Below are positions 39,413-63,277 of a DNA stretch of 64,000 nucleotides, in pieces; position 1 is the first letter of the stretch, and every line of letters begins with the position of its first letter. Position numbers and translations under genes: made by a program. The DNA lies in assembly GCA_036343395.1 (NCBI GenBank), contig JAZASH010000002.1:12425-76424 (forward strand). The letters are read 5' to 3'. This stretch comes from Eubacterium sp. GTDB lineage: Bacteria; Bacillota; Clostridia; Lachnospirales; Lachnospiraceae. The notes beneath the pieces were generated by a model. That model was given only the letters and a program-made list of their open reading frames with translations. It made no database searches and was not told the DNA's origin.

Positions 39413-39438
39413 CGATTCTTTGGGGAGGAAGGAACAAT

Positions 39439-40824: not shown

Positions 40825-40848
40825 AATAATTGCTCCTAAGGAGAAGGT

Positions 40849-42693: not shown

Positions 42694-42739
42694 ACGCAAT
42701 ATGGATGCAGGTTATAGTTGTACAAAAAAAGGAGGAAAG

Positions 42740-43249: not shown

Positions 43250-43253
43250 TCAG

Positions 43254-44315: not shown

Positions 44316-44323
44316 GGTTTTAT

Positions 44324-44575: not shown

Positions 44576-44715
44576 TTTTCTCTTTTTCTTGGATGATAAC
44601 TATTTCTCATTTTTATCCTTTCTCTTAGAAAGAGGATAAAGAAGCTGTTAGATAGTTGATATAATGCGTATTCTTTGATAGGGTTAAGGCATTAATAATA
44701 GGAGGTTGAGTCGAG

Positions 44716-45981: not shown

Positions 45982-46030
45982 TGATAACGACCTATTATTA
46001 AGGGTGGTTGATTAAAGAAAGGAGAATCTT

Positions 46031-47002
46031 ATGCGACGTTTTATTCTGACTACAGGACCGGCACTTCTTCATGAGGTACCTTTGAGTGAGGTGCATGACT
46101 CCAGAAATATTTATAGGATTAATGGAGCACATGGGGGTATTACTGATATCGAGAATTATATTAAGGAGATACGTCGACAGGAACCCGACGCAGATATTCT
46201 AATGGATCTTCCGGGCAATAAAGTGCGTACCAAAGAACTTCCAAATGGTGGTGTTGAAGTTGAGGTTGGGAAGCAGTTTTCTATTCCTTCTGAGTGCTTT
46301 AACTATTCCGGTTTTTGGAAACATCTTAGGCCGGGGATGATTGCGTGGGCAAATGATAGCGTGTTTGAATTTGAGGTAATTTCGTCGGACGAAAAGAATA
46401 TCGTGTTCTTGTCAAAGTCGGATGGCGTTCTGATCAACAATAAGGGGGTTCATGTTCGTGGAATACATGATAGTATGCCGTTTCTGTTTGAAAAGGACAA
46501 GAAACTGATTGAACTTGCGAATAAATGGGCACTTTCGTTTGTTGGGTTATCCTTTGTACGTAAAGCGGAGGATGTGAGTGAAGCCAGGGGGTTGCTATCG
46601 AAAAACACCGAGATTATCACTAAGATTGAAACTTTGGATGCGGTAAACAATATAAACGATATTTTGCCTTTGACGAGGTATATCCTTATAGACCGTGGCG
46701 ATTTGTCTACCGATGTTGGAGTTGATCGTATTCCTAGATTTCAAGATTTTATTATTAGACGGGCTCATTTTTATGATGTGAGAGTTTTTTTGGCTACACA
46801 AGTCTTGAAAAGCATGGAGACTAAGCCACTTCCGACGATCGGAGAGGTTGAAGCGCTTTATAATATCTATAAAGCGGGTGTATATGGCGTCCAGATGTCA
46901 GAAGAGACAGCAGTTGGGCAGTATGTAGTAAAGTGTGTTGAAAAACTAAGAGAGATGGAAGAAGAGGTGCTCTCGGAATCGATTACACTTCATAAGGCAT
47001 GA
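46031..47002 (+). CDS. Divergent, C-terminally truncated pyruvate-kinase-like protein
   Basis: TTGPA, RINGAHG, DLPGNKVRT, LSFVRKAEDV, KIE, RGDL, ATQVLKSM, SEETAVG; lacks the C domain. Confidence 0.75.
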   Translation: MRRFILTTGPALLHEVPLSEVHDSRNIYRINGAHGGITDIENYIKEIRRQEPDADILMDLPGNKVRTKELPNGGVEVEVGKQFSIPSECFNYSGFWKHLRPGMIAWANDSVFEFEVISSDEKNIVFLSKSDGVLINNKGVHVRGIHDSMPFLFEKDKKLIELANKWALSFVGLSFVRKAEDVSEARGLLSKNTEIITKIETLDAVNNINDILPLTRYILIDRGDLSTDVGVDRIPRFQDFIIRRAHFYDVRVFLATQVLKSMETKPLPTIGEVEALYNIYKAGVYGVQMSEETAVGQYVVKCVEKLREMEEEVLSESITLHKA

Positions 47003-47021
47003 TTGATATTGAGGATGAAAA

Positions 47022-48836
47022 ATGGATATTCAAAAAGAGTATGATGATATCGTTGATGAATTCTATCGCTGTTTTAGTTTGAAAAATATTAAAAAAGAAG
47101 AATGTGAGTTCATAACTGAACTTCTAAAGAAACAGTGCGATGGTAAGAGAATTGGTGTGTATGGAACAGGACTACATACAGAAAAACTTGGAGAATTATA
47201 CAGTCTTGATGATATTATGTTTTATATCGATTCAAGTCGAAACAGCGGTGAATATAATGGGAAAAGGGTTATCTCGCCATATAATGAGCATATTAAGTGG
47301 CTGGATGTTATCATCATTTCTAGTTTTGTTCACAGAAAGGAAATGGAAGAAAAGCTTTATGAGGTTGGGTTTTGCGGCAAAGTGATTGACATATATGATG
47401 AAATTAATGCTGAGTTTTCTGATGTTTACAATTCCACATTTGTTTCTTTTTTTGATGAATATGTACCTGCAAATGATGAATTATATCGCCTGCTGATCAA
47501 CTATAAAAGATTTGGCGGGGAAAACGACATCCAGTTATTCATTATAGGATTGCTTAAAATATATGACTTTAAGAATGCTCTTTCATATTTAGATGAATAT
47601 TGCGAGATATATGGAAGACAAAATGAGGGAAAAGGGGCAAGTATTCTAAAAGCGGTTGACAGATTGACCAATTTGCTAAACCGGATCAAAAGTGAGATAC
47701 AGTCCAGGCCGTACAAGGATATAATTATTAATTGGGTCGACAATATTGGCGTTGATTTCAAAGAAATGCGGTTTCTGTCCAGCATAGTTGAAAAATCTGT
47801 TGTATACAAAGATGCATATACTGTAATTCCATATACTTCTTCTGTGATTGAGACCATTAATTATGGAGAGAACAATATTGATGCGAGGTTGTTTGAGAAA
47901 AGAAAAGACAAGTCGGATTCTCGGCTGGTAGAGGCATGTAAAAAGCATCATTATGAGTTTAAGCATCTGGCAATGAAATCTTACACGTCAGGTTATCCGG
48001 AAGGATGCGAAGAGTATCAAAGAAAAGTATTTCGGAATACACGAATTCCTTCGACTGTGCATCAATGGGAGGCACTGCGATTATTAACATCTGTAAACGA
48101 ACCATTGGTAATAATTATTCATAATCTATGGGAAACTCATCAACCGTTTTGCAGTCCTTTTACTCCTAGATATACGTGGAATTATTATGAGTATACAGAG
48201 TATTGGAACGAGCATCCGGAAATGCATTCTAAGCTTGAAGTAAACAGAATCAATTGCAGATACTATTTAGATGAACAGCTTGAATGGTATTATTCTTTTT
48301 TGAATGGGAATAGCATTAAAATATATTTTAGTGACCATGGGTTTCGGTATAATAATTATTATGAAGAATCCAGATCTAGAATTCTTTTCTCGGTTATGTC
48401 TGACAGTCTCCAGCCGAGATGTATTGATAAAGGAGTGTTTAGTTTAAATAGATTTATAGATGTATTGGATTTGTTAATGAGTGGTGGGACCGAATTAGAA
48501 AGGCTAACGGATGATTTTGCACCTCTTCAGAATTATGATACGTATATGATATTGTATGTTCTTTGGGCTTTGGATGGAAAACAGAATAAGAGATTATCGT
48601 TGCAGTATCGAGGCGGTACAGACGGTAAATACAAGTATATACGATTTGTAGATGGTAAAGAATATTTTTTTGTTTTGCCGGATGAGGATACAAACTATAT
48701 AGATGATAAGTCATATGCGGATGATATAGAAAGATTGAAACGAAATTCCGGAGATGACTTTATTGATGTGTTTGAAGAAGATTTTTTTATCCGGTCTCGG
48801 ATTCTATATGATTATTGGGGGTTATCATGTCATTAA
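47022..48836 (+). CDS. Alkaline-phosphatase/sulfatase-fold protein B (paralogue of 40849)
   Basis: IIINWVDNIG...DAYTVIPYTSS...HNLWETHQP...YFSDHG. Confidence 0.65.
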   Translation: MDIQKEYDDIVDEFYRCFSLKNIKKEECEFITELLKKQCDGKRIGVYGTGLHTEKLGELYSLDDIMFYIDSSRNSGEYNGKRVISPYNEHIKWLDVIIISSFVHRKEMEEKLYEVGFCGKVIDIYDEINAEFSDVYNSTFVSFFDEYVPANDELYRLLINYKRFGGENDIQLFIIGLLKIYDFKNALSYLDEYCEIYGRQNEGKGASILKAVDRLTNLLNRIKSEIQSRPYKDIIINWVDNIGVDFKEMRFLSSIVEKSVVYKDAYTVIPYTSSVIETINYGENNIDARLFEKRKDKSDSRLVEACKKHHYEFKHLAMKSYTSGYPEGCEEYQRKVFRNTRIPSTVHQWEALRLLTSVNEPLVIIIHNLWETHQPFCSPFTPRYTWNYYEYTEYWNEHPEMHSKLEVNRINCRYYLDEQLEWYYSFLNGNSIKIYFSDHGFRYNNYYEESRSRILFSVMSDSLQPRCIDKGVFSLNRFIDVLDLLMSGGTELERLTDDFAPLQNYDTYMILYVLWALDGKQNKRLSLQYRGGTDGKYKYIRFVDGKEYFFVLPDEDTNYIDDKSYADDIERLKRNSGDDFIDVFEEDFFIRSRILYDYWGLSCH

Positions 48837-49839: not shown

Positions 49840-50544
49840 ATGATAGAAGGGAAAAAAGCAATAGCAATCATTCCTGCCAGGGGCGGAAGCAAGGGGATAC
49901 CCGGGAAAAACGTGGTGGATGTTGCCGGCAGACCGCTGATTGCATACACCATAGCGGCAGCTACCAATTGTGATGAGATAGACAGAGTGGTTGTGTCTAC
50001 GGATGATACAGATATTGCAGGTATAGCAATCCGGGAAGGAGCAGAGGTGCCATGGCTGCGCCCGGCTGAGCTGGCATCCGACACGTCTAAAACCATCGAT
50101 GCCGTGATATATACGTTGGAGCGTATCCGGTCGGAGGAAGGTGAGAAGTATGATCTGCTTGTCCTCCTGCAGCCAACCAGTCCTTTGAGGCGTGAAGTAG
50201 ACATCAAGGTTGCCATCCGTGCGGCTGTAGATACCGGTGAGGATGTAGTGACGATCAGTGAGATCAATGATCCGCCCGTGCTGATGAGAGAATACGAAGA
50301 GATATCGGACGGTGTAGGGAGGGTAAAGAATTACATAGATACTTCCTCTACGATTCGAAGGCAGGATATGAAAAAAATGTACCGGGTAAATGGTGCTGTC
50401 TATGTTAACCATGTGGATCGGCTCAGCTTGGATACAAGTCTGAATGACAATCCAGTTGGGGTTTTGATGCCCAAAGAAAGAAGTATTGATGTTGATGATG
50501 AGACAGATTTGTTCATGGTCAGGGCATTGATCACGAGTGAATAA
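49840..50544 (+). CDS. neuA: CMP-N-acetylneuraminate synthetase
   Basis: IIPARGGSKGIPGKN...VVSTDD...LLQPTSPLR...NGAVY...SIDVDDETD. Confidence 0.92.
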   Translation: MIEGKKAIAIIPARGGSKGIPGKNVVDVAGRPLIAYTIAAATNCDEIDRVVVSTDDTDIAGIAIREGAEVPWLRPAELASDTSKTIDAVIYTLERIRSEEGEKYDLLVLLQPTSPLRREVDIKVAIRAAVDTGEDVVTISEINDPPVLMREYEEISDGVGRVKNYIDTSSTIRRQDMKKMYRVNGAVYVNHVDRLSLDTSLNDNPVGVLMPKERSIDVDDETDLFMVRALITSE

Positions 50545-50567
50545 TCTGACAGAGGGAGTTGGACGCG

Positions 50568-51602
50568 ATGTCATTTTTAATGGGAGAGATTGAGGTGAGT
50601 TCGGATTCTCCGGTTCTGGTTATACCGGAAATAGGAATCAATCATGCAGGCAGTCTGAGCGTGGCGAAAGAGATGGCGGCATCGGCACATAGAGCAGGCG
50701 CAAGGCTGATCAAGCACCAGACACATATTTGCGAGGATGAGATGAGTGGTGCTGCCAGGAGTGTGGTTCCAGGGAATTCTGATAGATCGATATACGATAT
50801 CATGGAGTCATGTGCCCTGGATGAGGAGGAAGAACGCGCTTTCAAGGATTATGTAGAATCACTGGGGATGATGTTTATCAGTACGCCATTCTCCCGAGCT
50901 GCTGCGGAGAGACTTGAGCGGCTGGGAGTCGGGGCCTATAAGATCGGATCCGGTGAGTGCAACAACTATCCGCTGGTGGAGCATATCGCTGAATATGGAA
51001 AACCAATGATTATTTCTACCGGGATGAATGATTTGCCATCTATAGAGAAAACGGTCAGCATTCTGGAAAGGTATGGTGTGACGTACGCGCTGATGCACAC
51101 GACCAATTTGTATCCGACCAAGCCGGAATGGGTGAGACTTGGGGCGATGAGAGAGTTGATGGAGGCATTTCCCGGTGTGGAGATAGGATTGTCTGATCAT
51201 ACCCTGAACAACAATGCTTGTATTGCCGCGATGGGACTCGGTGCTACTCTGGTCGAGAGACATTATACAGACAGGATGGATCGGATCGGACCGGATATCA
51301 TATGTTCTATGGATGAGGTGGCTCTCGGAGAGCTGCTGAAGGCGGCCGGTGAGATTCCGCAGATGAGAGGCGGGAGCAAGTGTGCTATCCCTGAAGAAAA
51401 AGTGACGATAGATTTTGCGTTTGCTACGGTGGTTACGATAAAGGATGTTCGTGTAGGCGAGACCTTCACGAAGGATAACCTGTGGGTGAAGCGTCCTGGG
51501 ACCGGTGAGTTCCCTGCAGCGGAGTATGACAATATCCTCGGAAGGGTTGCAAATACCGATATATCTGCGGATACACAACTGAGCCGAGAGATGATTCGGT
51601 AG
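50568..51602 (+). CDS. neuB: N-acetylneuraminate synthase
   Basis: EIGINHAGS...KHQTHICEDEMS...PGNSDRSIYDIM...GLSDHT, C-terminal SAF domain KRPGTGE. Confidence 0.93.
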   Translation: MSFLMGEIEVSSDSPVLVIPEIGINHAGSLSVAKEMAASAHRAGARLIKHQTHICEDEMSGAARSVVPGNSDRSIYDIMESCALDEEEERAFKDYVESLGMMFISTPFSRAAAERLERLGVGAYKIGSGECNNYPLVEHIAEYGKPMIISTGMNDLPSIEKTVSILERYGVTYALMHTTNLYPTKPEWVRLGAMRELMEAFPGVEIGLSDHTLNNNACIAAMGLGATLVERHYTDRMDRIGPDIICSMDEVALGELLKAAGEIPQMRGGSKCAIPEEKVTIDFAFATVVTIKDVRVGETFTKDNLWVKRPGTGEFPAAEYDNILGRVANTDISADTQLSREMIR

Positions 51603-51615
51603 CGGGCCGGCGCTC

Positions 51616-51663
51616 TTGACAGCCTAGGTGATTTATGCGATAATGGGAGCCAGAGATGGCTCC
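51616..51663 (+). promoter_or_regulatory. sigmaA promoter plus inverted repeat for the SDR...pepM operon
   Basis: TTGACA-17-GATAAT (TG extended), immediately followed by GGAGCCA-GAGA-TGGCTCC. Confidence 0.65.
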
Positions 51664-51730
51664 TGTTTGTTGTTTTGAAGATGAAGTGGAAAAACGCTGA
51701 TGTAGAAGGGAAGCCGGGAGGTTTTTTAAT

Positions 51731-52474
51731 ATGCCAATGCATGGGAAAACTGTTATCATTACGGGCTGTAACAGGGGGATCGGAAAGGCGATTTTGGAAG
51801 GGATGGCTAGGAGAGGAACGGACATCATCGCGATCATCAGGGATAAAAAGCCGGATTTTGAACAATTTAGTGAAGAAATGGCACGTGAATGCGATGTTAG
51901 TATTCGTATGGTATATGCGGATTTTTCGGATGAAGAGGCTGTCAAGGCGGCTGCAAAGCAGATTATTCAGATGAAATGCCCGATTGACGCGATTGTCCAT
52001 AATACTGCTGTGGCGAATGAGTCGAGATCCTATATGATGACCGGCGTTGATGAGATGAAGCGTGTTTTCCAGATCAATTTTTTCTCACCGATTCTGTTGA
52101 CACAGCTACTGGGGCGCCAGATGATCAGGGCAAAGAAAGGGAGTATCGTTTTTATTGCGTCTGCCGCGATTTATGACGCGTGGGGAAATCTGGAGTATAC
52201 CGCCAGTAAGGCGGCAGTGGCGGGAGCCGTGAAGAGGCTTGCCAGAGAGATGGGGGCTTACGGTGTAAGGGTTAATGCTGTTGCACCCACGCTGACCGAG
52301 ACGGAGATGGCGGAGAAGATGAGCAAGGAGGATCAGGATGTGATCCTTTCGAGAAATATCATGCATCGGATGGGAAAGCCGGAGGAGATAGCAGATGCCG
52401 TTGCCTATCTGACGTCGGATGAGTCTGGGTTTATAACCGGACAGATTCTCCGTGTAGACGGTGGCTTGTTGTAA
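51731..52474 (+). CDS. SDR oxidoreductase
   Basis: TGCNRGIG; YTASK; VNAVAPTLTET; LRVDGG. Confidence 0.9.
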   Translation: MPMHGKTVIITGCNRGIGKAILEGMARRGTDIIAIIRDKKPDFEQFSEEMARECDVSIRMVYADFSDEEAVKAAAKQIIQMKCPIDAIVHNTAVANESRSYMMTGVDEMKRVFQINFFSPILLTQLLGRQMIRAKKGSIVFIASAAIYDAWGNLEYTASKAAVAGAVKRLAREMGAYGVRVNAVAPTLTETEMAEKMSKEDQDVILSRNIMHRMGKPEEIADAVAYLTSDESGFITGQILRVDGGLL

Positions 52475-52487
52475 TCGGAGGGAACAG

Positions 52488-54278
52488 ATGATTCGAGTTG
52501 TTGATTATATCGTGAAGCGCCTGAAAGAGCAGGGAATAGATCATGTTTTTTTTGTTCCCGGCGTGGGATGTATGTATCTGACGGATGCGTTGGCAAAGGA
52601 TAAGGAGATTACGGCCGTGTCGGTGCATCACGAACAGGCGGCTGCAATGGCTGCACTGGCCTATGCACAACAGAAAGAGGGACTGGGTGCGTGTTTTCTG
52701 ACAACGGGGTGTGGCGGGACAAATGCTATTACCGGTGTCCTCCATGCGTGGCAGGATGGAATCCCGTGTATCATCATATCCGGTCAGGTCAAACAGGAAG
52801 ATAGTATCGATGGCTGCGGTGCGGATGTGAGACAGGTGGGAAGACAGGAGGCGGATGTCTACCCCATGATAAAGGGAATTACTAAGTACGCGTCTGTCGT
52901 ACGTAATGCTTCGCAGATTGGTGCGGAGATGGATAAGGCGATTTATCATTCTGTCAACGGGAGACAGGGACCGTCCTGGCTCATTCTGCCGTTGGATGTG
53001 CAGGCGGGGATGGTAGATGAGGATTCACTGGATTCGTGGAGGCCGGAAACGAAACCGGAAGATACGGTAGATAGAGATGCGGAGGAGATCAGTGAATGGA
53101 TCCGGAGCGTCTCGAGACCTCTTCTTCTGGTTGGAAGCGGGATCCGGGCGGCCGGAGCTGTGGGAATACTGCAGTCGTTCCTGGACAAGACAGGAATGCC
53201 GGTCGTGTGTGCGAGAACGGGAGTCGATCTGATCGATGGTGACAGAGCCTATGCGATAGGGGTGACCGGGACATTGGGGGTCAACAGGGCTGCGAACTTT
53301 GCCGTGGCTAACTGTGATCTGCTTTTGGTCGTAGGCCACAGGATGAGCCGTGATACGGTTGGTGATGCAAATAAATATGCAAGAGAAGCCAGAATATGTA
53401 TGATCGATATTGACCCGGAGGAGATGAATAAAAACACCATACGTGTCGATAAAAAGATATGTGCGGATGCCGGTTCATTTTTGCATAAACTGTCGGAAAG
53501 AGTGTCTTCCGATGATATCGACAAAAACTGGAAAGATAAGTGTATGCATTGGAAATGTGTTTTTCCCAAAAAAGATGCTTTGTGTGTATCGGAGGAGAAA
53601 AGTGTACCGGATCTGTATACGTTTTTGGATGCACTATCAAAGGTGATGCCGGAGAAAACGACGTTGCTCAGTGATGCCGGCTCCGTATGGCAACTGGTGC
53701 CATCCGTGGTCGGATATGATGGCATGACACAGCGTAGTATTCATGCTTATGCGCAGGGAGAAATGGGGTTTTCGATACCCGGTGGTATAGGGGCTGCCTA
53801 TGCGAATCCGGATGGAGTCACGGTGGCCATCACCGGTGATGGCTCTGCCATGATGAATATCCAGGAACTGGCTACCATCCATCACAGAAGTATACCGGTC
53901 AAGATCATCGTAATCAATAATAAAGGTTATGCCACGATCAAGACCACACAGAAGGATGCCTTTCGAAGGACCATTGGAACCGGGTTGGAGGATGGACTGG
54001 GGATGCCGGAGTACAGTTGTCTGGCGGAAGCATTCGGAATCTGTTACATGAGTATCGATACTACCGATCATCTGGAAGAGAGTATTCGTGAGGTGTTGGA
54101 TACGGAAGGGCCGGTGTTGTGTGAGGTGTTCTGTGAAGACAGGACGCGGACTCTCATGACTTCCTTTGCCATGACAAAGGAAAGACGGATGGTGATGAGG
54201 CCAATCGAGGATTTGTCACCGTTTCTTGACAGAGAGTTGTTCCTGAGCGAAATGATAATAGACCCAATCGATCAATGA
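52488..54278 (+). CDS. ThDP-dependent acetolactate-synthase-like enzyme
   Basis: HHEQAAAMAA...TTGCGGTNA...GDGSAMMNIQEL...NN ThDP motif; no small subunit nearby. Confidence 0.85.
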   Translation: MIRVVDYIVKRLKEQGIDHVFFVPGVGCMYLTDALAKDKEITAVSVHHEQAAAMAALAYAQQKEGLGACFLTTGCGGTNAITGVLHAWQDGIPCIIISGQVKQEDSIDGCGADVRQVGRQEADVYPMIKGITKYASVVRNASQIGAEMDKAIYHSVNGRQGPSWLILPLDVQAGMVDEDSLDSWRPETKPEDTVDRDAEEISEWIRSVSRPLLLVGSGIRAAGAVGILQSFLDKTGMPVVCARTGVDLIDGDRAYAIGVTGTLGVNRAANFAVANCDLLLVVGHRMSRDTVGDANKYAREARICMIDIDPEEMNKNTIRVDKKICADAGSFLHKLSERVSSDDIDKNWKDKCMHWKCVFPKKDALCVSEEKSVPDLYTFLDALSKVMPEKTTLLSDAGSVWQLVPSVVGYDGMTQRSIHAYAQGEMGFSIPGGIGAAYANPDGVTVAITGDGSAMMNIQELATIHHRSIPVKIIVINNKGYATIKTTQKDAFRRTIGTGLEDGLGMPEYSCLAEAFGICYMSIDTTDHLEESIREVLDTEGPVLCEVFCEDRTRTLMTSFAMTKERRMVMRPIEDLSPFLDRELFLSEMIIDPIDQ

Positions 54279-54291
54279 GGAGGGATTGTTC

Positions 54292-54531
54292 ATGACTAAT
54301 CTTGAGAAATATGATGCGGCGTTCCGGCAGGCGTTGGCACTTGATGATGAATATGATGTCACAGGTCTACGATACCAGGCGATTCCGTCGTGGGATTCCG
54401 TGGGACATATGGGATTGGTTGCCTGCCTGGAGGACAGCTTTGGATTCGTGTTTGATGTCGATGATATGATAGACTTGGACTCTTATGAGAAGGGGATTGA
54501 GCTACTGAAAAAATACGACATTGAGATTTGA
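54292..54531 (+). CDS. Acyl carrier protein 3
   Basis: WDSVGHMGLV motif; similar to ACP 2. Confidence 0.88.
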   Translation: MTNLEKYDAAFRQALALDDEYDVTGLRYQAIPSWDSVGHMGLVACLEDSFGFVFDVDDMIDLDSYEKGIELLKKYDIEI

Positions 54532-54550
54532 TATCGGCAGGGAGGCATAG

Positions 54551-55153
54551 ATGACGGACTATGAATATGTCACGATCTCTCCACCTGACAGAGATCAAGG
54601 AAGAAGACTGAGTTATGACGGTTTTTCTCTCCTGGACCGTGTTGTCGATGTTGAGGTAAAGAGTACCCAGGTTCAGGGATTGAATCGGTATCGGTTTACC
54701 ATTTCAAAGGAGTCGGTGTCAGAAAAAAAGGAAGAGATGCTCGCCATTTGTTCCGAGGCGTATGTCAATGATTACAGGTTCTATGTTTCAGGCGAAAGAT
54801 CGGATCCAGATGCAGTGGCTCGAATGAGGGATTTGATCGGTCAGTTAGAGCATCCGGGAACGATCCTTTTGTGGGTGGAATATCGCGAAAACGGAATAGG
54901 GTTTCTGGCGCTGACATCGGAGGAGGATGCAATGCGAATCACATTGGCAGCAGTCCTTCCGAAATATCAGGGAAGCGGAGTGGCTCTTGAGTTGTATACG
55001 AAAGGGATACTGGTAGCCGCTGAGGCTGGGATGAACCGGGTTATCGGTCGGATATCCACGACAAACACCGCAGTGATGAATCTGTATTCGCATCTGGGGG
55101 CCAAGTTTACTTCTCCGATGGATGTCTACGTCAGGAAACAGGAAGGAAAGTGA
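54551..55153 (+). CDS. GNAT family acyltransferase
   Basis: ITLAAVLPKYQGSGVA...ISTTNTAVMNLYSHLG. Confidence 0.8.
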   Translation: MTDYEYVTISPPDRDQGRRLSYDGFSLLDRVVDVEVKSTQVQGLNRYRFTISKESVSEKKEEMLAICSEAYVNDYRFYVSGERSDPDAVARMRDLIGQLEHPGTILLWVEYRENGIGFLALTSEEDAMRITLAAVLPKYQGSGVALELYTKGILVAAEAGMNRVIGRISTTNTAVMNLYSHLGAKFTSPMDVYVRKQEGK

Positions 55154-55159
55154 AAGAAA

Positions 55160-56236
55160 ATGAAGCTGGATGACTGGTTTGAACTGGATCCGTATGGGCT
55201 GGAACAGGGAGAAAAGGGAGTAAAGACTGCGGATTATATGAGGGAGTTGTGCCGCTATCACTATGAAGCCTGTCCGGAGTATAAAGCAATTCTGGACACA
55301 CTGGGTGTAGATATAGAGGAAATCGATTCACCGGAAATGGTTCCCTATGTACCGGTTCGATTATTTAAAAACCATTATCTGCACAGTGTGCCCGAGGAGG
55401 AGATCACCCGTGTGATGACATCGTCGGGGACGACCGGACAACAGGTTTCACGTATAGCTTTGAGCGCGGACAATGCCAAGGCGCAGCAGAAGGCGCTGTC
55501 CAGGATCGTGGCTTCCTATGTTGGGGAAAACCGGTTGCCACTCATGATTCTTGATTCTAAGAGAGCCATCAAGGATCGCAAGATGTTTTCGGCAAGGGGG
55601 GCGGGAATCCTCGGCTTTTCCATATTTGGTAAGGATACTACATATGCGCTTGATGAGGATATGAAGCCGGATTTGGGAGTAATCGAGGAGTTTCTGAAAA
55701 AGCACGGTGATGAGCCAATCCTTTTATTCGGGTATACCTATATGATCTGGAAGGAGTTTTATCTCAACCTGAAGGAAGCGGGACAAAAAGTCGACTTTGG
55801 GAAAGGATCAAGACTATTTCATGTAGGCGGATGGAAAAAACTACAGGATCTGGCCGTGGATAAGGATGAATATGCAGGCAGTCTCAGGGAACAGTGTGGG
55901 ATTGAGTTTGTTCATAACTATTATGGAATGGCGGAACAGCTGGGGTCTATTTTTGTTGAATGTGAAGAGGGACATCTGCACACCAGTATCTATTCTGATG
56001 TGATCATCCGGGATTCGGAGGATTTTTCTGAGGTATCGGACGGAGAGGCTGGATTGATGGAGGTGATGTCTGTATTGCCGACATCCTATCCGGGGCATGC
56101 TATCCTGACCGAGGATAAGGGAAGAATCCTGGGAGTTGACGACTGTCCCTGTGGAAGGAAAGGGAAATACTTTGAGATATTGGGCAGGATCGCACGAGCA
56201 GAGGTGAGAGGCTGCAGCGATACTTATCAAGGATGA
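55160..56236 (+). CDS. Acyl-protein synthetase (LuxE family)
   Basis: TSSGTTG...HVGGWKK...YYGMAEQ...YPGHAILTEDKG...GRIARAEVRGCS. Confidence 0.88.
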   Translation: MKLDDWFELDPYGLEQGEKGVKTADYMRELCRYHYEACPEYKAILDTLGVDIEEIDSPEMVPYVPVRLFKNHYLHSVPEEEITRVMTSSGTTGQQVSRIALSADNAKAQQKALSRIVASYVGENRLPLMILDSKRAIKDRKMFSARGAGILGFSIFGKDTTYALDEDMKPDLGVIEEFLKKHGDEPILLFGYTYMIWKEFYLNLKEAGQKVDFGKGSRLFHVGGWKKLQDLAVDKDEYAGSLREQCGIEFVHNYYGMAEQLGSIFVECEEGHLHTSIYSDVIIRDSEDFSEVSDGEAGLMEVMSVLPTSYPGHAILTEDKGRILGVDDCPCGRKGKYFEILGRIARAEVRGCSDTYQG

Positions 56237-56255
56237 TTGTCAAGGAGGAGCACGT

Positions 56256-57434
56256 ATGGATATATTGGCCGGTGTTAAGCCGGAGGAGATTGTTGTAAAA
56301 CCGTTAAGACCGTATTGCGATATAGTTTGTGATTTTTTTAATGATTGGAGCCGGTTGATGAGATCTCATCCTGAGGGAAGACGCCTTGGTGATGTGGTTT
56401 CTTTTGCTTTTTTTTGCCGAAAAGGAAATCTAGAGCGTTTGAGGGAAGAGGCGCATATTGAGGACTTGCGGATGGGACGAGGGTTGTGCTTCCATATCGC
56501 ACCGTCCAATATTCCGGTTAATTTTGCGTTTAGTTATGCATTTGGTCTCCTTGCGGGGAATGCCAATATCGTCAGAGTTTCGAGCAAGGCTTTTTCTCAG
56601 GTGGATATCATATGTGATACTTTAAATAAGTTGTTTGAGGATGATAGGTATGAGGCGATTCGCCGTATGACATCCATCGTGAGATATGACCACGATTCGG
56701 AAATTACGGACAGGCTTTCCGGTATGTGTGACATACGATTGATATGGGGAGGTGACGAGACGATAGCTGCTATACGAAGGTCTATTCTCAAACCGGGAAG
56801 CACTGAGATCACCTTTGCGGATAGGTATTCGATTGCGGTTATCGATGGGAAAACGGTTCGTAGTGCATCGGAGGAGGAACTGGAGAAGTTGGCCGGTGAG
56901 TTCTACAACGATACATATATGATGGATCAAAATGCTTGTTCATCACCTCAGATGATATACTGGATCGGAGCGGAGAAGGCGGACAAAGACAGGTTCTGGG
57001 ATGCAGTTAGTCAAACCATAGAGGGGTATGATGTAAGTGAGTTCATTGCCAGTGAGAAATATACTATGCTTTGTGATGATGCGATCGTTCAGCAGGGAGT
57101 GGGAAGACTGAAAAAGTATCAAAACAAACTGTATGTTGTTGATATTCCTGCGAATGCTGACGTGGATATGCTGGATGGTTGTCACGGGAAATACGGCCTT
57201 TTTTGCGAACAGGAGATCGATGGTATTTTGGAAATACTGGATTCAATCGACCGCAAGGTTCAGACCTGCACTTACTATGGAGTGGATGCAAGGGGGCTTG
57301 CCGAGCAGGTTTTGGACCAGGGTGTGACGGGGATCGATCGAATCGTGCCAATAGGGAAAGCGTTGGATATTGGAGTGTACTGGGATGGATATGATCTGGT
57401 CAGACAGATGAGTCGGAGGATAGAGGTAGTATGA
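56256..57434 (+). CDS. Acyl-CoA reductase (LuxC family)
   Basis: HIAPSNIPVNFAFS...GLLAGNANIVRVSS...DQNACSSP...GIDRIVPIG. Confidence 0.88.
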   Translation: MDILAGVKPEEIVVKPLRPYCDIVCDFFNDWSRLMRSHPEGRRLGDVVSFAFFCRKGNLERLREEAHIEDLRMGRGLCFHIAPSNIPVNFAFSYAFGLLAGNANIVRVSSKAFSQVDIICDTLNKLFEDDRYEAIRRMTSIVRYDHDSEITDRLSGMCDIRLIWGGDETIAAIRRSILKPGSTEITFADRYSIAVIDGKTVRSASEEELEKLAGEFYNDTYMMDQNACSSPQMIYWIGAEKADKDRFWDAVSQTIEGYDVSEFIASEKYTMLCDDAIVQQGVGRLKKYQNKLYVVDIPANADVDMLDGCHGKYGLFCEQEIDGILEILDSIDRKVQTCTYYGVDARGLAEQVLDQGVTGIDRIVPIGKALDIGVYWDGYDLVRQMSRRIEVV

Positions 57435-58198
57435 ATAGCATTAAAAGGCAATTATTGGATTCTCTGAGAAAACTGGAAGAGTATCATGGCGTGGAGGCAA
57501 TAAAGGCAGAGTTTGAGGCGGAGGGTTCTCGACTCGACGAGCTTATCATGTTGAACGAGGTTGTTTTTCGGGCGGATATGGAGCTGATTATCAAAATCGG
57601 CGGATGTGAGGCTGTGAGAGATTTGGACCAGTGCAAGCTGCTCGGGGCATCAGGGGTGATGGTACCGATGATCGAGACGCCATTTGCCATGGAAAAGTTT
57701 ATCGGTGCGTATCACAAGGTGTACGGGGAGGAGACTTCGGCTGAAAGGATTATCAATGCGGAGACGATTACCTGCCTGGAAAACTATGATGAGATACTTA
57801 GCCGGGGGAAGGGATTCCTTACCGGTGCTACCGTGGGACGGAGTGATCTGTCTGCGTCTATGGGGATAGATAAATCGGATATCGAAAGCGATGCGGTTTT
57901 TGATGCCACGATGGAGTTTGTCAAGAAATCAAGGAATGCGGGTTTAGTTACGAATTTCGGCGGTGGAATCGGAGTAGAATCGATTCCGTTTATCATAAGG
58001 ATGAGTCCATTTATCGACCGTTTTGAAACCAGAAAGGTTGTGATCCGATCCAGCGAAGATTCGGATTGGTTGAAGAAAACGATACAGGAGGCGTTGCGAT
58101 TTGAATTGCTGTACCTTGAATACAAAGCCAGCTATTATGATGCAATGTCGAAGGAGGATTCAAAGAGAATGAAACGGTTGAAAGGGCAGCTTAACTAA
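57431..58198 (+). CDS. HpcH/HpaI aldolase/citrate lyase family protein
   Basis: KAEFEAEG...KIGGCEA...VPMIET...INAET...GRSDLSASMG. Confidence 0.75.
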   Translation: MNSIKRQLLDSLRKLEEYHGVEAIKAEFEAEGSRLDELIMLNEVVFRADMELIIKIGGCEAVRDLDQCKLLGASGVMVPMIETPFAMEKFIGAYHKVYGEETSAERIINAETITCLENYDEILSRGKGFLTGATVGRSDLSASMGIDKSDIESDAVFDATMEFVKKSRNAGLVTNFGGGIGVESIPFIIRMSPFIDRFETRKVVIRSSEDSDWLKKTIQEALRFELLYLEYKASYYDAMSKEDSKRMKRLKGQLN

Positions 58199-58254
58199 CG
58201 CGGATGGCTATTGGAAAAGATGCAAAAACTCTTGCAGAAATGAGGACAGTATAG

Positions 58255-59550
58255 ATGAAGACAATTTATACCTGCTTTTGTACAGATATTATCCATGAGG
58301 GACATATGAACATCCTTCGTGAGGCGGCAAAGTATGGTCGTGTTGTGGTTGGTGTACTTTCGTCGTCTCAGATGATGCTCTATAACCGTTTCCCGACGAA
58401 GACAACTGTGGAGAGGGTTGAGATGATCCGCGCGATTGATCTAGTGGCTGAGGTGATTGTTCAGAAGACGATCATGTATGATGATGTGATCGGTGAACTG
58501 CATCCGGACTACGTGATCCATGGTGATAACTGGAATGGAGAGTGGATGGAGAGGATTCGTCAGAATATCGTCTCGCTACTTGAACCATATGGTGGAAAAC
58601 TTATTGAGGTTTCTTTTACCAGAAGCCCTGAGATTACACGTATCGATCGGTTGATGGAGCAGAAACTGGCTATGCCGGAGTTTCGTAGACATCGTTTGCG
58701 CCGCGTGATGGAGTTGACACCGATCGTAAAGACGATTGAGGTACATTCGGGATTGACCGGGTTGATCGCGGAGCACACGCAGGTGGTTGATGAGAAATCG
58801 ATCGCTCAGTATGATGCAATGTGGATTTCATCGCTCTGTGACTCGACGGCAAAGGGAAAACCGGATATCGAACTGGTTGATATGACGTCGCGTTTTCATA
58901 CCATTGATGAGGTAATGGAGGTTACGACGAAGCCAATCATTTTTGACGGTGATACCGGTGGTTTGACAGAGCACTTTGTCTATACAGTGAGGACGTTGGA
59001 GCGGATGGGAGTTTCGGCGGTGATTATTGAGGATAAGATTGGGTTGAAGAAGAATAGTCTCTACGGAACAGAAGCGGGGCAGACTCAGGCGTCGGTTGAA
59101 GAGTTCTGTGAGAAACTTCGCGCCGGGAAGAATGCACAACTGTCGGATGACTTTATGATCATCGCTCGCGTGGAGTCTCTGATCTTGGAACGGGGGATGG
59201 CGGATGCGCTTTCTCGTGCTTTTGCATATCGAGATGCTGGTGCGGACGGTATCATGATACACAGCCGTCAGAAGTCGCCGGATGAGATATTGGAGTTTTG
59301 CGATAAGTTTAGAGAGTTCGATAAGGATACACCGTTGGTTGTTGTTCCGTCGTCGTATAATACCGTTACGGAGGACGAGTTGGCAGTTCATGGGGTGAAT
59401 ATCGTGATTTACGCAAATCAGCTTCTTCGTGCAGCGTTCCCGGCGATGAAGAAGGTGGCGCAGAGTATCCTCAAGTATCATAGAGGGGCAGAAGCGGATG
59501 AGGATCTGATGCCCATTGATGAGATCTTGGGATTGATTGAGCAGTTGTGA
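58255..59550 (+). CDS. pepM: Cytidylyltransferase-phosphoenolpyruvate phosphomutase fusion (AepX type)
   Basis: N-terminal DIIHEGH; PepM motifs W.SSL.DS..KGKPD, DGDTGG, EDKIGLKKNSL, ARVESLI, YANQLLRA. Confidence 0.93.
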   Translation: MKTIYTCFCTDIIHEGHMNILREAAKYGRVVVGVLSSSQMMLYNRFPTKTTVERVEMIRAIDLVAEVIVQKTIMYDDVIGELHPDYVIHGDNWNGEWMERIRQNIVSLLEPYGGKLIEVSFTRSPEITRIDRLMEQKLAMPEFRRHRLRRVMELTPIVKTIEVHSGLTGLIAEHTQVVDEKSIAQYDAMWISSLCDSTAKGKPDIELVDMTSRFHTIDEVMEVTTKPIIFDGDTGGLTEHFVYTVRTLERMGVSAVIIEDKIGLKKNSLYGTEAGQTQASVEEFCEKLRAGKNAQLSDDFMIIARVESLILERGMADALSRAFAYRDAGADGIMIHSRQKSPDEILEFCDKFREFDKDTPLVVVPSSYNTVTEDELAVHGVNIVIYANQLLRAAFPAMKKVAQSILKYHRGAEADEDLMPIDEILGLIEQL

Positions 59551-59565
59551 TGGAGAGATGGGAGG

Positions 59566-60306
59566 TCAAATCACAGTTAGGGCCTGTAGTTCTTCCGGGG
59601 TGTCGACTTCATAGAGGTCGTCATTGCCTACGGGGAAGATGGTTAGGTTCAGTTTGTCGAGGTTTTGATTTACGACATCATCCCAGAAGAGGTTCTCGGT
59701 TCCTGGGGTATTATATGATTCTATGATAGCATCGGCTAATACGGTGCTATCGTTTTTATTGAAGTAGGAGAGGCCGACCATCATGTGGGTGTCCATGCCG
59801 GATTTGCCAACGCGGGTGATGCGGCCGGTTTTGTCCGTGTCAAAGCACCAGTCGTCGGTGGGACCGGCGTGATACTTGGCAAAGTAGCCGGAGATGCGAT
59901 CACGCTTGGTTGTCACATGAGCAGAGTGGTCGTCCTCCGCATGCTTAGCGGTAGCATATGATAGGATGTTTTGCTTCTTGATGTAAAGGTCTGCTTCGCA
60001 TATGAAACAATCCTCACCTCGGAGCGTGTCTACAGCGACGTAGAGGGAGGAGAGATTGTTTTTTGTCTCGTATTCTGGGTTGTGGACAAGATGGACCTCT
60101 TGGTGTTTTTCTGTGAGTGTGGCGAATTGGTCTGCTTTGTACCCTGTCACGATGTAGATGTCTGTGACGCCGTAGTTTTCGAGAGCGGATATGACGGTCT
60201 CGATGAGCATCGTGTCGCCGACTTTAAGAAGGGGCTTTGCTGTGGTTTCTGTGAGTGGGCGCATGCGCATGCCCATGCCGGCAGCGAGCAGGATTCCGAT
60301 AGCCAT
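59566..60306 (-). CDS. LicC/PntC-like nucleotidyltransferase (candidate CMP-phosphonate synthase)
   Basis: ILLAAGMGMRMRPLT...PKPLL-like KPLLKV...NNLSSL...FWDDVV...EVDTPEEL; co-transcribed with the AEP transaminase. Confidence 0.8.
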   Translation of the reverse strand: MAIGILLAAGMGMRMRPLTETTAKPLLKVGDTMLIETVISALENYGVTDIYIVTGYKADQFATLTEKHQEVHLVHNPEYETKNNLSSLYVAVDTLRGEDCFICEADLYIKKQNILSYATAKHAEDDHSAHVTTKRDRISGYFAKYHAGPTDDWCFDTDKTGRITRVGKSGMDTHMMVGLSYFNKNDSTVLADAIIESYNTPGTENLFWDDVVNQNLDKLNLTIFPVGNDDLYEVDTPEELQALTVI

Positions 60307-60307
60307 A

Positions 60308-61459
60308 TTATTCCTCCGTATACTTTGCGGGTATCTGAACCCTGTTTTCTTTTAGCGCAGCTTCGAACACTTCCCAGAAGTTTTCTATATCGGGGGCGTC
60401 TATCGCTCCAAGGGCGCAAAGGCGGAATGAGCCAGTGTTTTCCAGCTTTCCCGGATAGATGGTGAAGCCGCGTTCGTAGCAGTAGTCGTGTACTTTGTCA
60501 AAATCCCAATTCGGATCGTCGGGATAGCGAATCGCCGAGACGAGTCCGGACTGGTTCTTTCTGTCGAGCAGTTCTCTGAATCCAAGTCGATCGACGCCGG
60601 CGCGGATGGCGTTGATGATGCGCTGGTGACGCGACCATTTTTCTGACTCCCCTTCGGCGAAGTATTCGTCGAGAGCCTGGCGTGCGGCGTAGATGGTCTG
60701 CACCGGTGGTGTGAAGTGCATCTGGCCGGTTTTCTCGAAAAACTCGTACTGCAGATAGAGGTTGCAGTAGTAGGAGCGAGTCGGGTTTTGCTTCGACTTC
60801 TCGATGAGGTCGGTGCGACCGATGATGTAGGACAGACCGGTCATGCCCTGGATGCCTTTTTGCGCAGATGCCATGCAGAAGTCGATGTTGTCTTTTTCGA
60901 TATCTATGGGGATCATCGCGTAGGATGATGTAGTGTCGGTGATGAAAACTGCGTCGTGTTCGTGCGCAATGCGGCCGATCTCTCGGATTGGATTGAGGAG
61001 ACCGGAGCCGGTCTCGTGGTGTGTGGCGTAGACAACAGCGATGTCGTTTTTCTTAGTAAGAATGTGCTCGAGCTCGGCGAGATTCGGGGGCTTGTAAAGG
61101 GACTGCACCCAATCGACGTATGGGATATGGTAGGCGTCCAAGATTTCGCAGGCGCGCTCGGAGTAGGCGCCGTTGTGGATGACAAGGGCGCGGGGCGTGC
61201 CGTCGGGTGAGTCCGGTACCAGGGAGTTTAGCACGATGTCCATGCAGATGGTGCCGGAGCCGCAGAATGGGACAGCGGTGTAGGTTTCCGGGTCGCCGTG
61301 GACGATCTTGACGAGATCGTCGCGGATATTTTTCATAAGGAAAGCGAACTCCTCCTCGCGTGGACAGATGTCGGGGACGATCTGAGCGGCTTTTACCGTA
61401 TCGGTCGTCGTGGACGGGCCCGGGTTTAGAAGGATGTTGCGTTTGATCGGTGTGGTCAT
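60308..61459 (-). CDS. phnW: 2-aminoethylphosphonate aminotransferase
   Basis: ILLNPGPSTT...DICPRE...GSGT...HHETGSGLLNP...DTTSSY...SAQKGIQG...HFTPP; GAGGTG RBS before ATG 61459. Confidence 0.9.
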   Translation of the reverse strand: MTTPIKRNILLNPGPSTTTDTVKAAQIVPDICPREEEFAFLMKNIRDDLVKIVHGDPETYTAVPFCGSGTICMDIVLNSLVPDSPDGTPRALVIHNGAYSERACEILDAYHIPYVDWVQSLYKPPNLAELEHILTKKNDIAVVYATHHETGSGLLNPIREIGRIAHEHDAVFITDTTSSYAMIPIDIEKDNIDFCMASAQKGIQGMTGLSYIIGRTDLIEKSKQNPTRSYYCNLYLQYEFFEKTGQMHFTPPVQTIYAARQALDEYFAEGESEKWSRHQRIINAIRAGVDRLGFRELLDRKNQSGLVSAIRYPDDPNWDFDKVHDYCYERGFTIYPGKLENTGSFRLCALGAIDAPDIENFWEVFEAALKENRVQIPAKYTEE

Positions 61460-61496
61460 GTGGGTCACCTCGGTTTTATAGTTCTTTATAGTTTTT

Positions 61497-61525
61497 ATAA
61501 TATAACCATTGTTTGGTGTTGTCAA
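61497..61525 (-). promoter_or_regulatory. sigmaA promoter of the phnW/aepZ-nucleotidyltransferase unit
   Basis: Minus strand TTGACA-17 nt-TATTAT. Confidence 0.7.
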
Positions 61526-61592
61526 GCGGAGCCATCTGGTGGTCTATTTTTGAACACCTGTGATGACTTGAAATGCTATTTCGATGTTTCTT

Positions 61593-62888
61593 TCATATAA
61601 ACATTGCCATATAAAGTGGAAGAGTATCCACGGTATCGTTAGAGGATAGATTCTTAGATGAGAGCTTGATACCATGTTTTACTCCATGATTCTGTATGAT
61701 GCTTGTCATAGATTTTGATGTGTTCTTTTCTGAAGATTTTACTTCTACAGCGGTTAATTGTTTGTTGTAGCGGATGATAAAATCCATTTCCAGTTTGGAA
61801 TCTTTTTCGTAGTAGTAGAGCTTTTTCTCTGATTTGGTGAAGATGTCGGCAACGATGTTTTCGTAGATGGCGCCCTTGTAGATGCCAAGGTTTCCGTCGA
61901 GGATATCCTCGACAGAACCTTCTTCGAGCATGGCTGTTAAAAGCCCGGTGTCTCGCATATATACCTTGAAACAATCGCTTTTTGCATTTCCTTCCAGAGG
62001 TAATTCGAGATTTGCCAGATTGTAGCAAAAGGATATGATTCCGGCATCAGCAAGCCACTCCAAGCTACCTCCGAATTTTCTGTAAGTGCCTTTTGCCTCG
62101 ATCAGGCTGTATCGGAACTTTTTATAGTCTTTAGCTAGATGCTTTGGGATAGACAGAAAGCAAGCACGCGCCTTGGTTTTTTCTGCGCCGGTGGCGTATT
62201 TTGCGATGTCATCGAGGTAGTCTGAAAGTATTTCGTTTTGAATGCGAAAAACCTTGGAAAAGTCGTTATGATCGACAAAGTCTTGCACAACATAAGGCAT
62301 GCCGCCGATTACGATGTATTTACGGAAGAGTTTCATATACTCTTCATGCATCGAGTCGGGAAGTGGCTCCCTGTTTTCGTAGTGTTCGCGAAGTGTTTGG
62401 ATGTTTTCTTCCGTGATTCCGCATGCCCATAGGAATTCTTCAAAGTCAAGTGAGTGCATATCAATGTAGTCCACATATCCTACCGGATAAGAGGGCATGC
62501 TTTTGTGGTGGATTCCAAGCATGGATCCGGAAGCGATCACGTCATATCGGTCATCCATGGAAAAAAACTTGAGGGCGGCCCTAGCTTCCGGGCATTCTTG
62601 AATCTCGTCCAGGAAGATGAGGGTCTCATGTGGGACTAATTCGACATCCCTTACGCGGAATGATATTTGCATCAGGATATCGTCGACACTGAGGGATTCT
62701 TTGAAGATTTCCTTGTAGGTAGGTTTTTCCACGAAGTTGATAGTGATATGGTGTTTGTAGTTTTCGCGGGCAAACTTCTCTATGACGTAGGTTTTGCCTA
62801 CCTGTCTGGCACCACGGATCATGAGTGAACGGGTGGTGCGATCATCTTTCCATTTTATGAGTTTTTCTTCGACTTTTCTCGTGAGCAT
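61593..62888 (-). CDS. AAA+ ATPase with DUF4143-type C-terminus
   Basis: GARQVGKT Walker A; FLDEIQ Walker B; IASGS; GGMP; YMRDTGLL; AVEVKS. Confidence 0.88.
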   Translation of the reverse strand: MLTRKVEEKLIKWKDDRTTRSLMIRGARQVGKTYVIEKFARENYKHHITINFVEKPTYKEIFKESLSVDDILMQISFRVRDVELVPHETLIFLDEIQECPEARAALKFFSMDDRYDVIASGSMLGIHHKSMPSYPVGYVDYIDMHSLDFEEFLWACGITEENIQTLREHYENREPLPDSMHEEYMKLFRKYIVIGGMPYVVQDFVDHNDFSKVFRIQNEILSDYLDDIAKYATGAEKTKARACFLSIPKHLAKDYKKFRYSLIEAKGTYRKFGGSLEWLADAGIISFCYNLANLELPLEGNAKSDCFKVYMRDTGLLTAMLEEGSVEDILDGNLGIYKGAIYENIVADIFTKSEKKLYYYEKDSKLEMDFIIRYNKQLTAVEVKSSEKNTSKSMTSIIQNHGVKHGIKLSSKNLSSNDTVDTLPLYMAMFI

Positions 62889-63217: not shown

Positions 63218-63277
63218 TAATGCAAGTATATCGCGGGGAGTTTTTATGTGATTTTTCAGAAAGTGAGGGTGAAATAT

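Follow-up and report, generated by a model that had tools for sequence, protein, structure and literature searches.

A possible composite decoration cassette in the flagellin glycosylation island of a Lachnospiraceae bacterium

We analyzed a stretch of 64,000 nucleotides from a gut Eubacterium sp. of the Lachnospiraceae (assembly GCA_036343395.1, contig JAZASH010000002.1), which corresponds to C2:12425-76424 and is referred to here as the window. Coordinates are those of the window unless they carry the prefix C2, C3 or the number of a related locus (L). The subject of this analysis is a run of seven genes at 51731-58198 that lies within an island of flagellin glycosylation genes. An earlier sequence-only reading had described the run as an operon for a short-chain dehydrogenase/reductase (SDR), a thiamine diphosphate (ThDP)-dependent enzyme, an acyl carrier protein, a GNAT acyltransferase, LuxE, LuxC and an aldolase. 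When we scanned the open reading frames (ORFs) with Pfam and NCBIfam, we found all seven at these positions on the + strand, with the domains as named, and the operon layout was borne out. We read the run as two coupled modules that recur together, rather than one linear pathway. The features are listed below with the evidence for each assignment.

51616-51644, + strand: promoter-like site, TTGACA, 17 nt, TG-GATAAT (extended -10); 11 of 12 positions match in a consensus scan
51731-52474, + strand: SDR, classical, FabG-like (adh_short_C2, 181 bits)
52488-54278, + strand: YerE-like ThDP-dependent carboligase of the three-domain decarboxylase superfamily (TPP_enzyme N, M and C domains)
54292-54531, + strand: small acyl-carrier-type protein with an invariant WDSVGHM motif (family profile against PDB)
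54551-55153, + strand: GNAT acyltransferase with a QGSGVA coenzyme A (CoA)/pantetheine loop (Acetyltransf_1)
55160-56236, + strand: LuxE-type acyl-protein synthetase, adenylating (LuxE, 181 bits)
56256-57434, + strand: LuxC-type thioester reductase, acid to aldehyde (LuxC, 104.6 bits)
57431-58198, + strand: divergent class II HpcH/HpaI-like pyruvate aldolase (HpcH_HpaI, 41 bits; cut-off 25)

The gaps inside the run ranged from -4 to +19 nt, the start of the aldolase gene overlapping the luxC stop by 4 nt, and 56 nt separated the aldolase gene from the gene that follows. The ThDP ORF was listed from GTG 52461, and ATG 52488 lies 6 nt behind a GGAGGG ribosome site. Similarly, the carrier ORF was listed from TTG 54286, and its homologues begin with MTNLEKY, which aligns their start to ATG 54292. 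The true starts of the two genes are most likely ATG 52488 and ATG 54292, respectively. The promoter that had been attributed to the run was recovered as a sigma-70-like site in the 128-nt gap after neuB, where it overlaps a terminator-like hairpin and T-run at 51642-51667. As a match to a consensus, the site is only suggestive of a promoter role.

The ThDP enzyme keeps the catalytic glutamate (HHEQ) and the cofactor motif GDGSAMM...INN (GDG...NN). Its nearest solved relative was JanthE (8rph), which aligned over the full length with 340 bits, as compared to 207-216 bits for the PDB entries named acetolactate synthase; the earlier suggestion of a YerE-like enzyme was thereby strengthened. JanthE of Janthinobacterium sp. 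HH01 (8rph, 8rpi, 8rpj) is a YerE-like carboligase that couples aldehydes to ketones and whose 2-oxo acid substrates range from C3 to C6 (PMC12188165, PMC12247030). The identity between the two proteins is moderate, and the window enzyme has the canonical GDG motif while JanthE has CDG. Against the acetolactate synthase model TIGR00118 the window enzyme scored 323 bits, with a cut-off of 538, and two genuine ilvB genes (724 and 704 bits) were found on other contigs of the genome. A role as the housekeeping ilvB was ruled out by these two observations. The SDR scored below every NCBIfam equivalog cut-off, and in related loci its orthologues (50-58% identity) directly precede the gene for the ThDP enzyme or the aldolase. 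By analogy to YerF and ErwF, the SDR is a candidate for the reductase of the ThDP product.

We examined 180 related loci, comprising 20 Lachnospirales loci found with LuxE, 80 loci found with the ThDP enzyme in genomes and 80 found with it in metagenomes. We grouped 80 ThDP orthologue loci, drawn from many phyla, according to the families of their neighbours, of which the commonest were a nucleoside diphosphate (NDP)-sugar 4,6-dehydratase (43 loci), a 446-aa DegT protein (34), a 259-aa nucleoside triphosphate (NTP)-transferase (30) and a class I/II aminotransferase (27), which is the dideoxyhexose context expected for YerE. Other ThDP loci had an acylating acetaldehyde dehydrogenase and a DmpG-type or canonical HpcH-type aldolase beside the ThDP gene, corresponding to the ErwJ/ErwI/ErwE pattern. 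A tree with the ilvB genes of this genome as its root placed the window enzyme among the orthologues, apart from ilvB, in a clade of exactly 22 sequences (support 1.0) that spans Bacillota and Succinivibrionaceae. All 22 members had carrier/ligase/LuxE/LuxC and/or aldolase neighbours in place of the dideoxyhexose genes, and a carrier or ligase gene often directly adjoined the ThDP gene. The link to NDP-4-keto-3,6-dideoxyhexose genes, which holds for the YerE-like family at large, was not found at this locus, in this genome or in this clade; of sugar genes of this kind, the genome has only RmlB and WecE. Ten positions in the ThDP enzyme were specific to the clade (R11, H86, H354, F359 and R493, for example). 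No relative with the exact gene order of the window, and no ThDP enzyme of more than 46% identity, was found in the genomes or metagenomes searched.

The joint occurrence of the same families, at 22 loci from genomes and 11 from metagenomes, is far above chance. We noted that an enzyme of a type that condenses an aldehyde with a C3 unit was present in 16 of the 22 clade loci, where it was HpcH-like in 6, a 540-aa DmpG-like protein in 8 and an atypical NeuB in 2; five of the six clade loci that had none end at a contig edge. In the metagenomes, 9 of the 11 Lux-context loci had a condensing enzyme, and the order SDR-ThDP-aldolase-carrier-ligase-LuxE-LuxC recurred. Taken together, 25 of 33 Lux-context ThDP loci from genomes and metagenomes had such an enzyme. 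On the other hand, none was found in the 18 LuxE loci that had no ThDP gene, and the carrier, ligase, LuxE and LuxC occurred without ThDP enzyme or aldolase in 18 of the 20 Lachnospirales loci. These proportions (16/22 and 9/11 as opposed to 0/18) indicate that the condensing enzyme goes with the ThDP enzyme, whereas the Lux module is able to occur by itself. The condensing enzymes, of three types, look like non-orthologous replacements for one step, from an aldehyde and pyruvate or phosphoenolpyruvate (PEP) to a 4-hydroxy-2-oxo acid. The version of the cassette containing NeuB was seen in L053, L058 and L177, and the cassette was also present in two cultured Oscillospiraceae isolates, 38-13 and 50-58 (L066, L067).

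The HpcH_HpaI match of the window aldolase covers profile positions 58-185 of 221. We obtained a structure model with a predicted local distance difference test (pLDDT) value of 91.8, whose top fold matches were HpaI, HpcH and YfaU (template modeling (TM) score ~0.6, 12-16% identity). On this model the best match is a class II pyruvate aldolase with a TIM-barrel fold like that of HpaI/HpcH. The protein comes from a large conserved family that has no NCBIfam family. In an alignment of the family, E111 (NAET) and D139 (GRxD) do not vary, and they lie in motifs that resemble the metal-ligand motifs of HpaI. An HpcH-like aldolase adjoined the ThDP gene in 13 other loci. The closest homologues of the window aldolase (65-68% identity) were located at L146/L147:10001-10774 and L148:7476-8249, in loci lacking LuxCE and ThDP genes. 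One of them stands beside a CMP-transferase and an RraA-like gene and another between an aminotransferase and a PfkB kinase with an NTP-transferase. Several pathways probably use members of this family to make 3-deoxy-2-keto acids. In L063, L067, L071, L105, L108, L162 and L192, the aldolase gene formed a trio with a second SDR gene and one for an AroB-related putative sugar-phosphate phospholyase (TIGR04425, 427 bits), a frequent arrangement that is absent from the window.

The carrier protein has 81 aa; it gave no Pfam hit as a single sequence and has no NCBIfam family. With a profile of its family searched against PDB, 24 of the 27 matches were acyl carrier proteins (best E = 2.7e-4, 2lml), and the invariant W-D-S aligned with the phosphopantetheine attachment serine. 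LuxE keeps the C-terminal acyl-cysteine (RGCS aligned to KGCS of 7xc6_E) and LuxC the catalytic cysteine (DQNAC aligned to DQQAC of 7xc6_A). The scores of both proteins against the NCBIfam equivalogs (79 for LuxE with a cut-off of 550, and 45 for LuxC with a cut-off of 750) speak against orthology with the bioluminescence proteins, and the cassette LuxE is the sole full LuxE match in the genome. The GNAT had a weak match to WecD (25.7 bits). The AMP-binding ligase of the module, a protein of 537 aa, is encoded at C2:79089-80702, ~9 kb downstream and outside the window, and is 45-62% identical to the ligases in other LuxE loci.

Of 401 genomes sampled from the same order, 24 had an orthologue of LuxE (44-57% identity). 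The 20 Lachnospirales loci that we fetched had LuxC (19), the ligase (18) and the carrier (13), usually with an SDR, and several of these loci end at a contig edge. The order carrier-ligase-GNAT-LuxE-LuxC was found in L055, L150, L151, L159 and L160, the subtype to which the window LuxE is nearest. Since the GNAT occupies the same slot in these five loci, it is a positionally conserved, though uncommon, member of the module. A LuxE 80% identical to that of the window lies on a 5.9-kb contig with no aldolase gene after luxC. In two other loci a lactate/malate dehydrogenase-like gene follows luxC, in the slot of the aldolase (L150:12952-13908 and L160:12392-13333), which hints that the Lux module may be supplied with 2-hydroxy or 2-oxo di-acids, malate for instance. 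A second recurrent cassette, SDR-split transketolase-LuxE-LuxC, stands beside the first in L063, L069, L079, L081, L100, L150, L151 and L160, and is often preceded by carrier-FabH-SDR. The window has FabH genes and a transketolase pair at 33593-35444, yet a single LuxE/LuxC pair.

The carrier, GNAT, LuxE, LuxC and displaced ligase, which we regard as the first module, are comparable by functional class to the tetronate genes wbeK-L-M-N-O (VC0248-VC0252) of V. cholerae O1, which likewise comprise a carrier, an ATP-dependent ligase, LuxC/LuxE, a reductase and an acyltransferase for a short hydroxy-acyl group on an amino sugar. The carrier role of WbeK and the ligase role of WbeL were reportedly assigned by Morona et al. 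1995, and WbeO is a hexapeptide-type transferase. The two systems differ in that LuxC and LuxE are separate proteins here while WbeN is a fusion, and in that an SDR takes the place of the iron alcohol dehydrogenase and a GNAT that of WbeO. In addition, the aldolase and ThDP enzyme are extra, and the amino sugar is not perosamine. Compared to the LuxC-LuxE pair of bioluminescence (7xc6), the folds and both acyl-cysteine sites are kept, whereas the cassette LuxC is ~85 aa shorter than the 7xc6 chain, no luxD or luxAB adjoins the run and the setting is one of glycan genes.

Modules of this kind have been reported from flagellin islands, as orf1-3, luxE and luxC 'fatty-acid-like' genes in Aeromonas group II (PMC7874193) and as Acp, CaiC, FabG, LuxE and LuxC in Enterobacteriaceae (PMC4875605). 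Matched by family descriptions, these are the same five families in a flagellin island beside nonulosonic-acid genes, although the ligase is displaced by ~9 kb in our genome. Unlike in the cassette described here, a ThDP enzyme, an aldolase or a GNAT is mentioned in neither report, and the genes were read as serving lipid or fatty-acid addition. We also considered sfmABCDE of Shewanella as the same module and rejected it, since its paper shows a PseI-like protein, FabG, a methyltransferase and an ATP-grasp enzyme instead.

The HpcH-like aldolase, ThDP enzyme and SDR, our second module, resemble the genes for erwiniose and yersiniose (YerE and YerF of Yersinia), where a YerE-like ThDP carboligase, an aldehyde-forming enzyme, a pyruvate aldolase and a reductase also stand in a surface-glycan setting. 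Erwiniose biosynthesis in Pectobacterium atrosepticum involves ErwJ, ErwI, ErwE and ErwF, and ErwE prefers 4-hydroxy-2-oxo acid donors (PMC9306805). In contrast to that pathway, the cassette would obtain its aldehyde from carboxylate reduction by LuxE/LuxC rather than from an acylating aldehyde dehydrogenase; its aldolase is HpcH-like rather than DmpG/BphI-like; and its genome has no genes for CDP-3,6-dideoxy-4-keto sugars (CDP, cytidine diphosphate). The cassette also adds a carrier, a ligase and a GNAT, and its target would be flagellin, not lipopolysaccharide. Single modules resemble known systems, but we met no description, in the literature searched, of their combination, of a dedicated ThDP clade or of condensing enzymes that replace one another.

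We propose that the run is a composite decoration cassette of the flagellin glycosylation island, built from one tetronate-like and one erwiniose-like module; we put this forward tentatively, as a reading that stops somewhat short of being probable. The product is most likely an unusual hydroxy-acyl or carbon-branch decoration of the flagellar glycan. The domain identities, catalytic residues, phylogenetic clade and conserved co-occurrence were observed; the substrate, the order of steps, the tethering to the carrier and the final acceptor are inferred. The ligase would attach a small di-acid to the carrier by one carboxyl group, LuxE would adenylate the free carboxyl and LuxC would reduce it to an aldehyde. 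The aldolase could then add pyruvate to the aldehyde to give a 4-hydroxy-2-oxo acid, which the ThDP enzyme would decarboxylate, the fragment being either joined to a carbonyl acceptor or released as a shortened aldehyde. The SDR would reduce the new keto group, and the GNAT would take the completed hydroxy-acyl chain off the carrier and transfer it to an amino sugar that ends on flagellin. The acceptor may be deoxythymidine diphosphate (dTDP)-4-amino-4,6-dideoxyhexose, the product of a WecE-type enzyme in the island, or a de-N-acetylated nonulosonic acid. The order from the LuxC aldehyde through the aldolase and ThDP enzyme to the SDR is suggested by the fact that the condensing enzyme tracks the ThDP gene. 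The presence of two adenylating enzymes with one carrier, which is the tetronate layout, also argues for this proposal.

The window opens with fliW, fliD, flgN and two flagellin genes, behind which lies a long co-directional island. It encodes glycosyltransferases along with LicD; NeuC together with a Maf-type protein; FabH/SDR and a split transketolase; a WecE-type aminotransferase; 3'-phosphoadenosine 5'-phosphosulfate (PAPS) genes; and a deacetylase, NeuA and NeuB. The flagellin-glycan setting assumed in the sequence-only reading was therefore confirmed by the FliW, FliD, FlgN, flagellin and Maf genes upstream of the run. The genes of the island and its downstream neighbourhood that bear on the cassette are as follows.

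38267-39412, + strand: WecE-type dTDP-4-keto-6-deoxyglucose 4-aminotransferase (TIGR02379, 617 bits, above cut-off)
58255-59550, + strand: PntC-like cytidylyltransferase fused to PEP mutase, pepM (TIGR02320, 403 bits)
59566-60306, - strand: NTP-transferase of the phosphonate branch
60308-61525, - strand: 2-aminoethylphosphonate (AEP) transaminase (TIGR03301, 437 bits)
61593-62888, - strand: AAA ATPase/DUF4143 gene, interrupting the phosphonate branch
63248-63790: MazE/RelB-like gene, interrupting the phosphonate branch

No 4,6-dehydratase is encoded within the island, RmlB being located on another contig (C3:26798-27820). With RmlB in the genome and WecE in the island, both the 4-keto sugar and its amine are available. 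The WecE enzyme shows that the island makes use of a 4-keto sugar nucleotide and is a candidate supplier of the amino-sugar acceptor, a tie to the cassette that we infer, and 4-amino-4-deoxyfucose (Fuc4N), named as acceptor in the earlier reading, holds up as a fair candidate. Neither CDP-glucose 4,6-dehydratase nor an RfbH-type dehydrase was found in this genome, which is 95% complete, and a CDP-3,6-dideoxy-4-keto sugar was ruled out as the acceptor on this ground. The G+C content was 0.37-0.39 at 36000-48000, in the middle of the island, and 0.47-0.51 at 50000-62000, which covers the cassette and phosphonate genes. Because G+C differs between blocks, the island looks like a mosaic of separately acquired pieces. 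Past the end of the window, the genes are, in order, a phosphonopyruvate decarboxylase (Ppd), a FliB-like methylase, the 537-aa ligase and a Fic protein. The methylase (L010:3776-5002) is a FliB-like flagellin lysine N-methylase with 108 bits, above cut-off, and the Fic-domain protein is encoded at L010:6802-7920. These two genes flank the displaced ligase, and the flagellin-modification island therefore reaches at least 7 kb beyond the window.

The sequence-only reading had the run end in pepM. The PntC-PepM gene is probably co-transcribed with the run, but it is part of a separate phosphonate branch. PepM was found beside none of the relatives of the cassette in the 180 related loci, so that its adjacency is confined to this genome, and pepM was ruled out as a member of the pathway. 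A Ppd ORF at C2:76437-77735 (L010:2438-3736) starts 13 nt beyond the end of the window, with its family match at C2:76470-77477 (TIGR03297, 408 bits, above cut-off). Since Ppd, PntC-PepM, AEP transaminase and the NTP-transferase are all present, the AEP branch is complete without the cassette ThDP enzyme. The latter scored 32 bits on TIGR03297, failing the cut-off, and was rejected as a missing Ppd given the canonical enzyme next to the window.

Several observations weigh against the composite cassette as proposed. For all YerE-like enzymes characterised so far, the acceptor of the fragment is an NDP-4-keto sugar and not a carrier-bound chain. The di-acid is purely conjectural, the hints being weak matches of the ligase to malonyl, o-succinylbenzoate (OSB), PimA and AmcH-type ligases and the malate/lactate dehydrogenase-like gene of L150 and L160. 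The ligase itself lies outside the run, with phosphonate genes, the AAA ATPase gene and the antitoxin-like gene in between. The GNAT is rare, being present in 1 of the 20 Lachnospirales loci, with 4 homologues recovered by word-indexed search. Moreover, the full-length loci L062 and L163 have no condensing enzyme at all, and the nearest homologues of the aldolase (65-70% identity) also occur in glycan loci that have no LuxCE or ThDP gene. The use to which known YerE-like enzymes are put would be retained if the run made an erwiniose-type C-branched sugar, with LuxE/LuxC producing a free aldehyde, the aldolase a free 4-hydroxy-2-oxo acid, the ThDP enzyme attaching the fragment to C4 of dTDP-4-keto-6-deoxyglucose and the SDR reducing the side-chain keto group, while the carrier, ligase and GNAT served a separate N-acylation. 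This is consistent with the dideoxyhexose genes at most loci of the family, with the preference of ErwE for aldolase-made 4-hydroxy-2-oxo acids and with the availability of a 4-keto-6-deoxy sugar nucleotide from RmlB, which WecE in the island consumes. We nevertheless consider it unlikely, as the genome has neither CDP-glucose 4,6-dehydratase nor RfbH-type dehydrase, the window ThDP clade has swapped its sugar-gene context for carrier and ligase genes, and a free aldehyde leaves two adenylating enzymes and a carrier with no role. The order put forward in the sequence-only reading, in which a free hydroxy acid is first made by the ThDP enzyme, aldolase and SDR, then activated by LuxE and the carrier and transferred by the GNAT to Fuc4N, draws on the tetronate genes as precedent and accounts for the WecE-type transaminase in the island, the WecD-like match of the GNAT and its fixed place beside LuxE in related cassettes. 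It did not stand up well, and we regard it as quite improbable, since it leaves the reductase LuxC, with its catalytic cysteine intact, without a role. ThDP decarboxylases give acyloins or aldehydes and not carboxylic acids, and LuxC is the only source of an aldehyde for the aldolase in the cassette. The occurrence of carrier, ligase, LuxE and LuxC without ThDP enzyme or aldolase at 18 of 20 loci further indicates that the Lux module has a substrate of its own.

That independence could also mean that two unrelated pathways stand side by side in a mosaic island and share no intermediate, one making a Lux acyl group and the other a separate ThDP/aldolase/SDR product. Each module does occur alone elsewhere (ThDP-aldolase-SDR has no Lux genes within 10 kb in L071, L105, L108 and L129), and the island is compositionally mosaic. 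However, the ThDP clade that is defined by Lux, carrier or aldolase neighbours is monophyletic with full support across Bacillota and Succinivibrionaceae, carrier or ligase genes often adjoin its ThDP genes, and the spacing in the window is tight; we thus find such a coincidence quite unlikely. An assignment of the aldolase and/or ThDP enzyme to the phosphonate pathway, with the ThDP enzyme substituting for Ppd or the aldolase condensing phosphonoacetaldehyde, might be prompted by the 56 nt between the aldolase and PntC-PepM genes and by the fact that no decarboxylase is visible within the window. It is largely refuted by the canonical Ppd just past the window, the AEP transaminase and NTP-transferase that complete the standard branch and the absence of PepM from the related loci, and is very unlikely. 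Finally, the three ThDP-enzyme domains and partial matches to acetolactate synthase models would fit an ordinary acetohydroxy-acid synthase for branched-chain amino acids, a role that is hardly credible in view of the TIGR00118 score, the two true ilvB genes, the lack of a small-subunit neighbour and the closer match to JanthE.

For more than ten years, LuxE/LuxC-carrier modules have been known from flagellin islands in Aeromonas and Enterobacteriaceae under the label "fatty-acid synthesis", and they are now seen in gut Bacillota. Linking them to a YerE-like clade and to three condensing enzymes yields a concrete order of reactions that can be tested, and predicts that common gut commensals bear an unusual hydroxy-acyl or branched group on their flagella. 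Groups of this kind shape the recognition of flagellin by immunity and by phages, and the ThDP enzymes attract interest as biocatalysts that could give tertiary alcohols and acyloins. A bolder and somewhat unlikely extension is that this ThDP clade has moved from NDP-keto-sugar to carrier-protein chemistry, in which LuxE/LuxC would reduce the free end of a tethered di-acid, interchangeable pyruvate/PEP-dependent condensing enzymes would extend it, and the ThDP enzyme and SDR would process it. If true, many bacteria of the gut, the rumen and the sea would possess an 'aldol-acyloin assembly line', with polyhydroxy-keto acyl groups as its products, to decorate flagellin and surface glycans.

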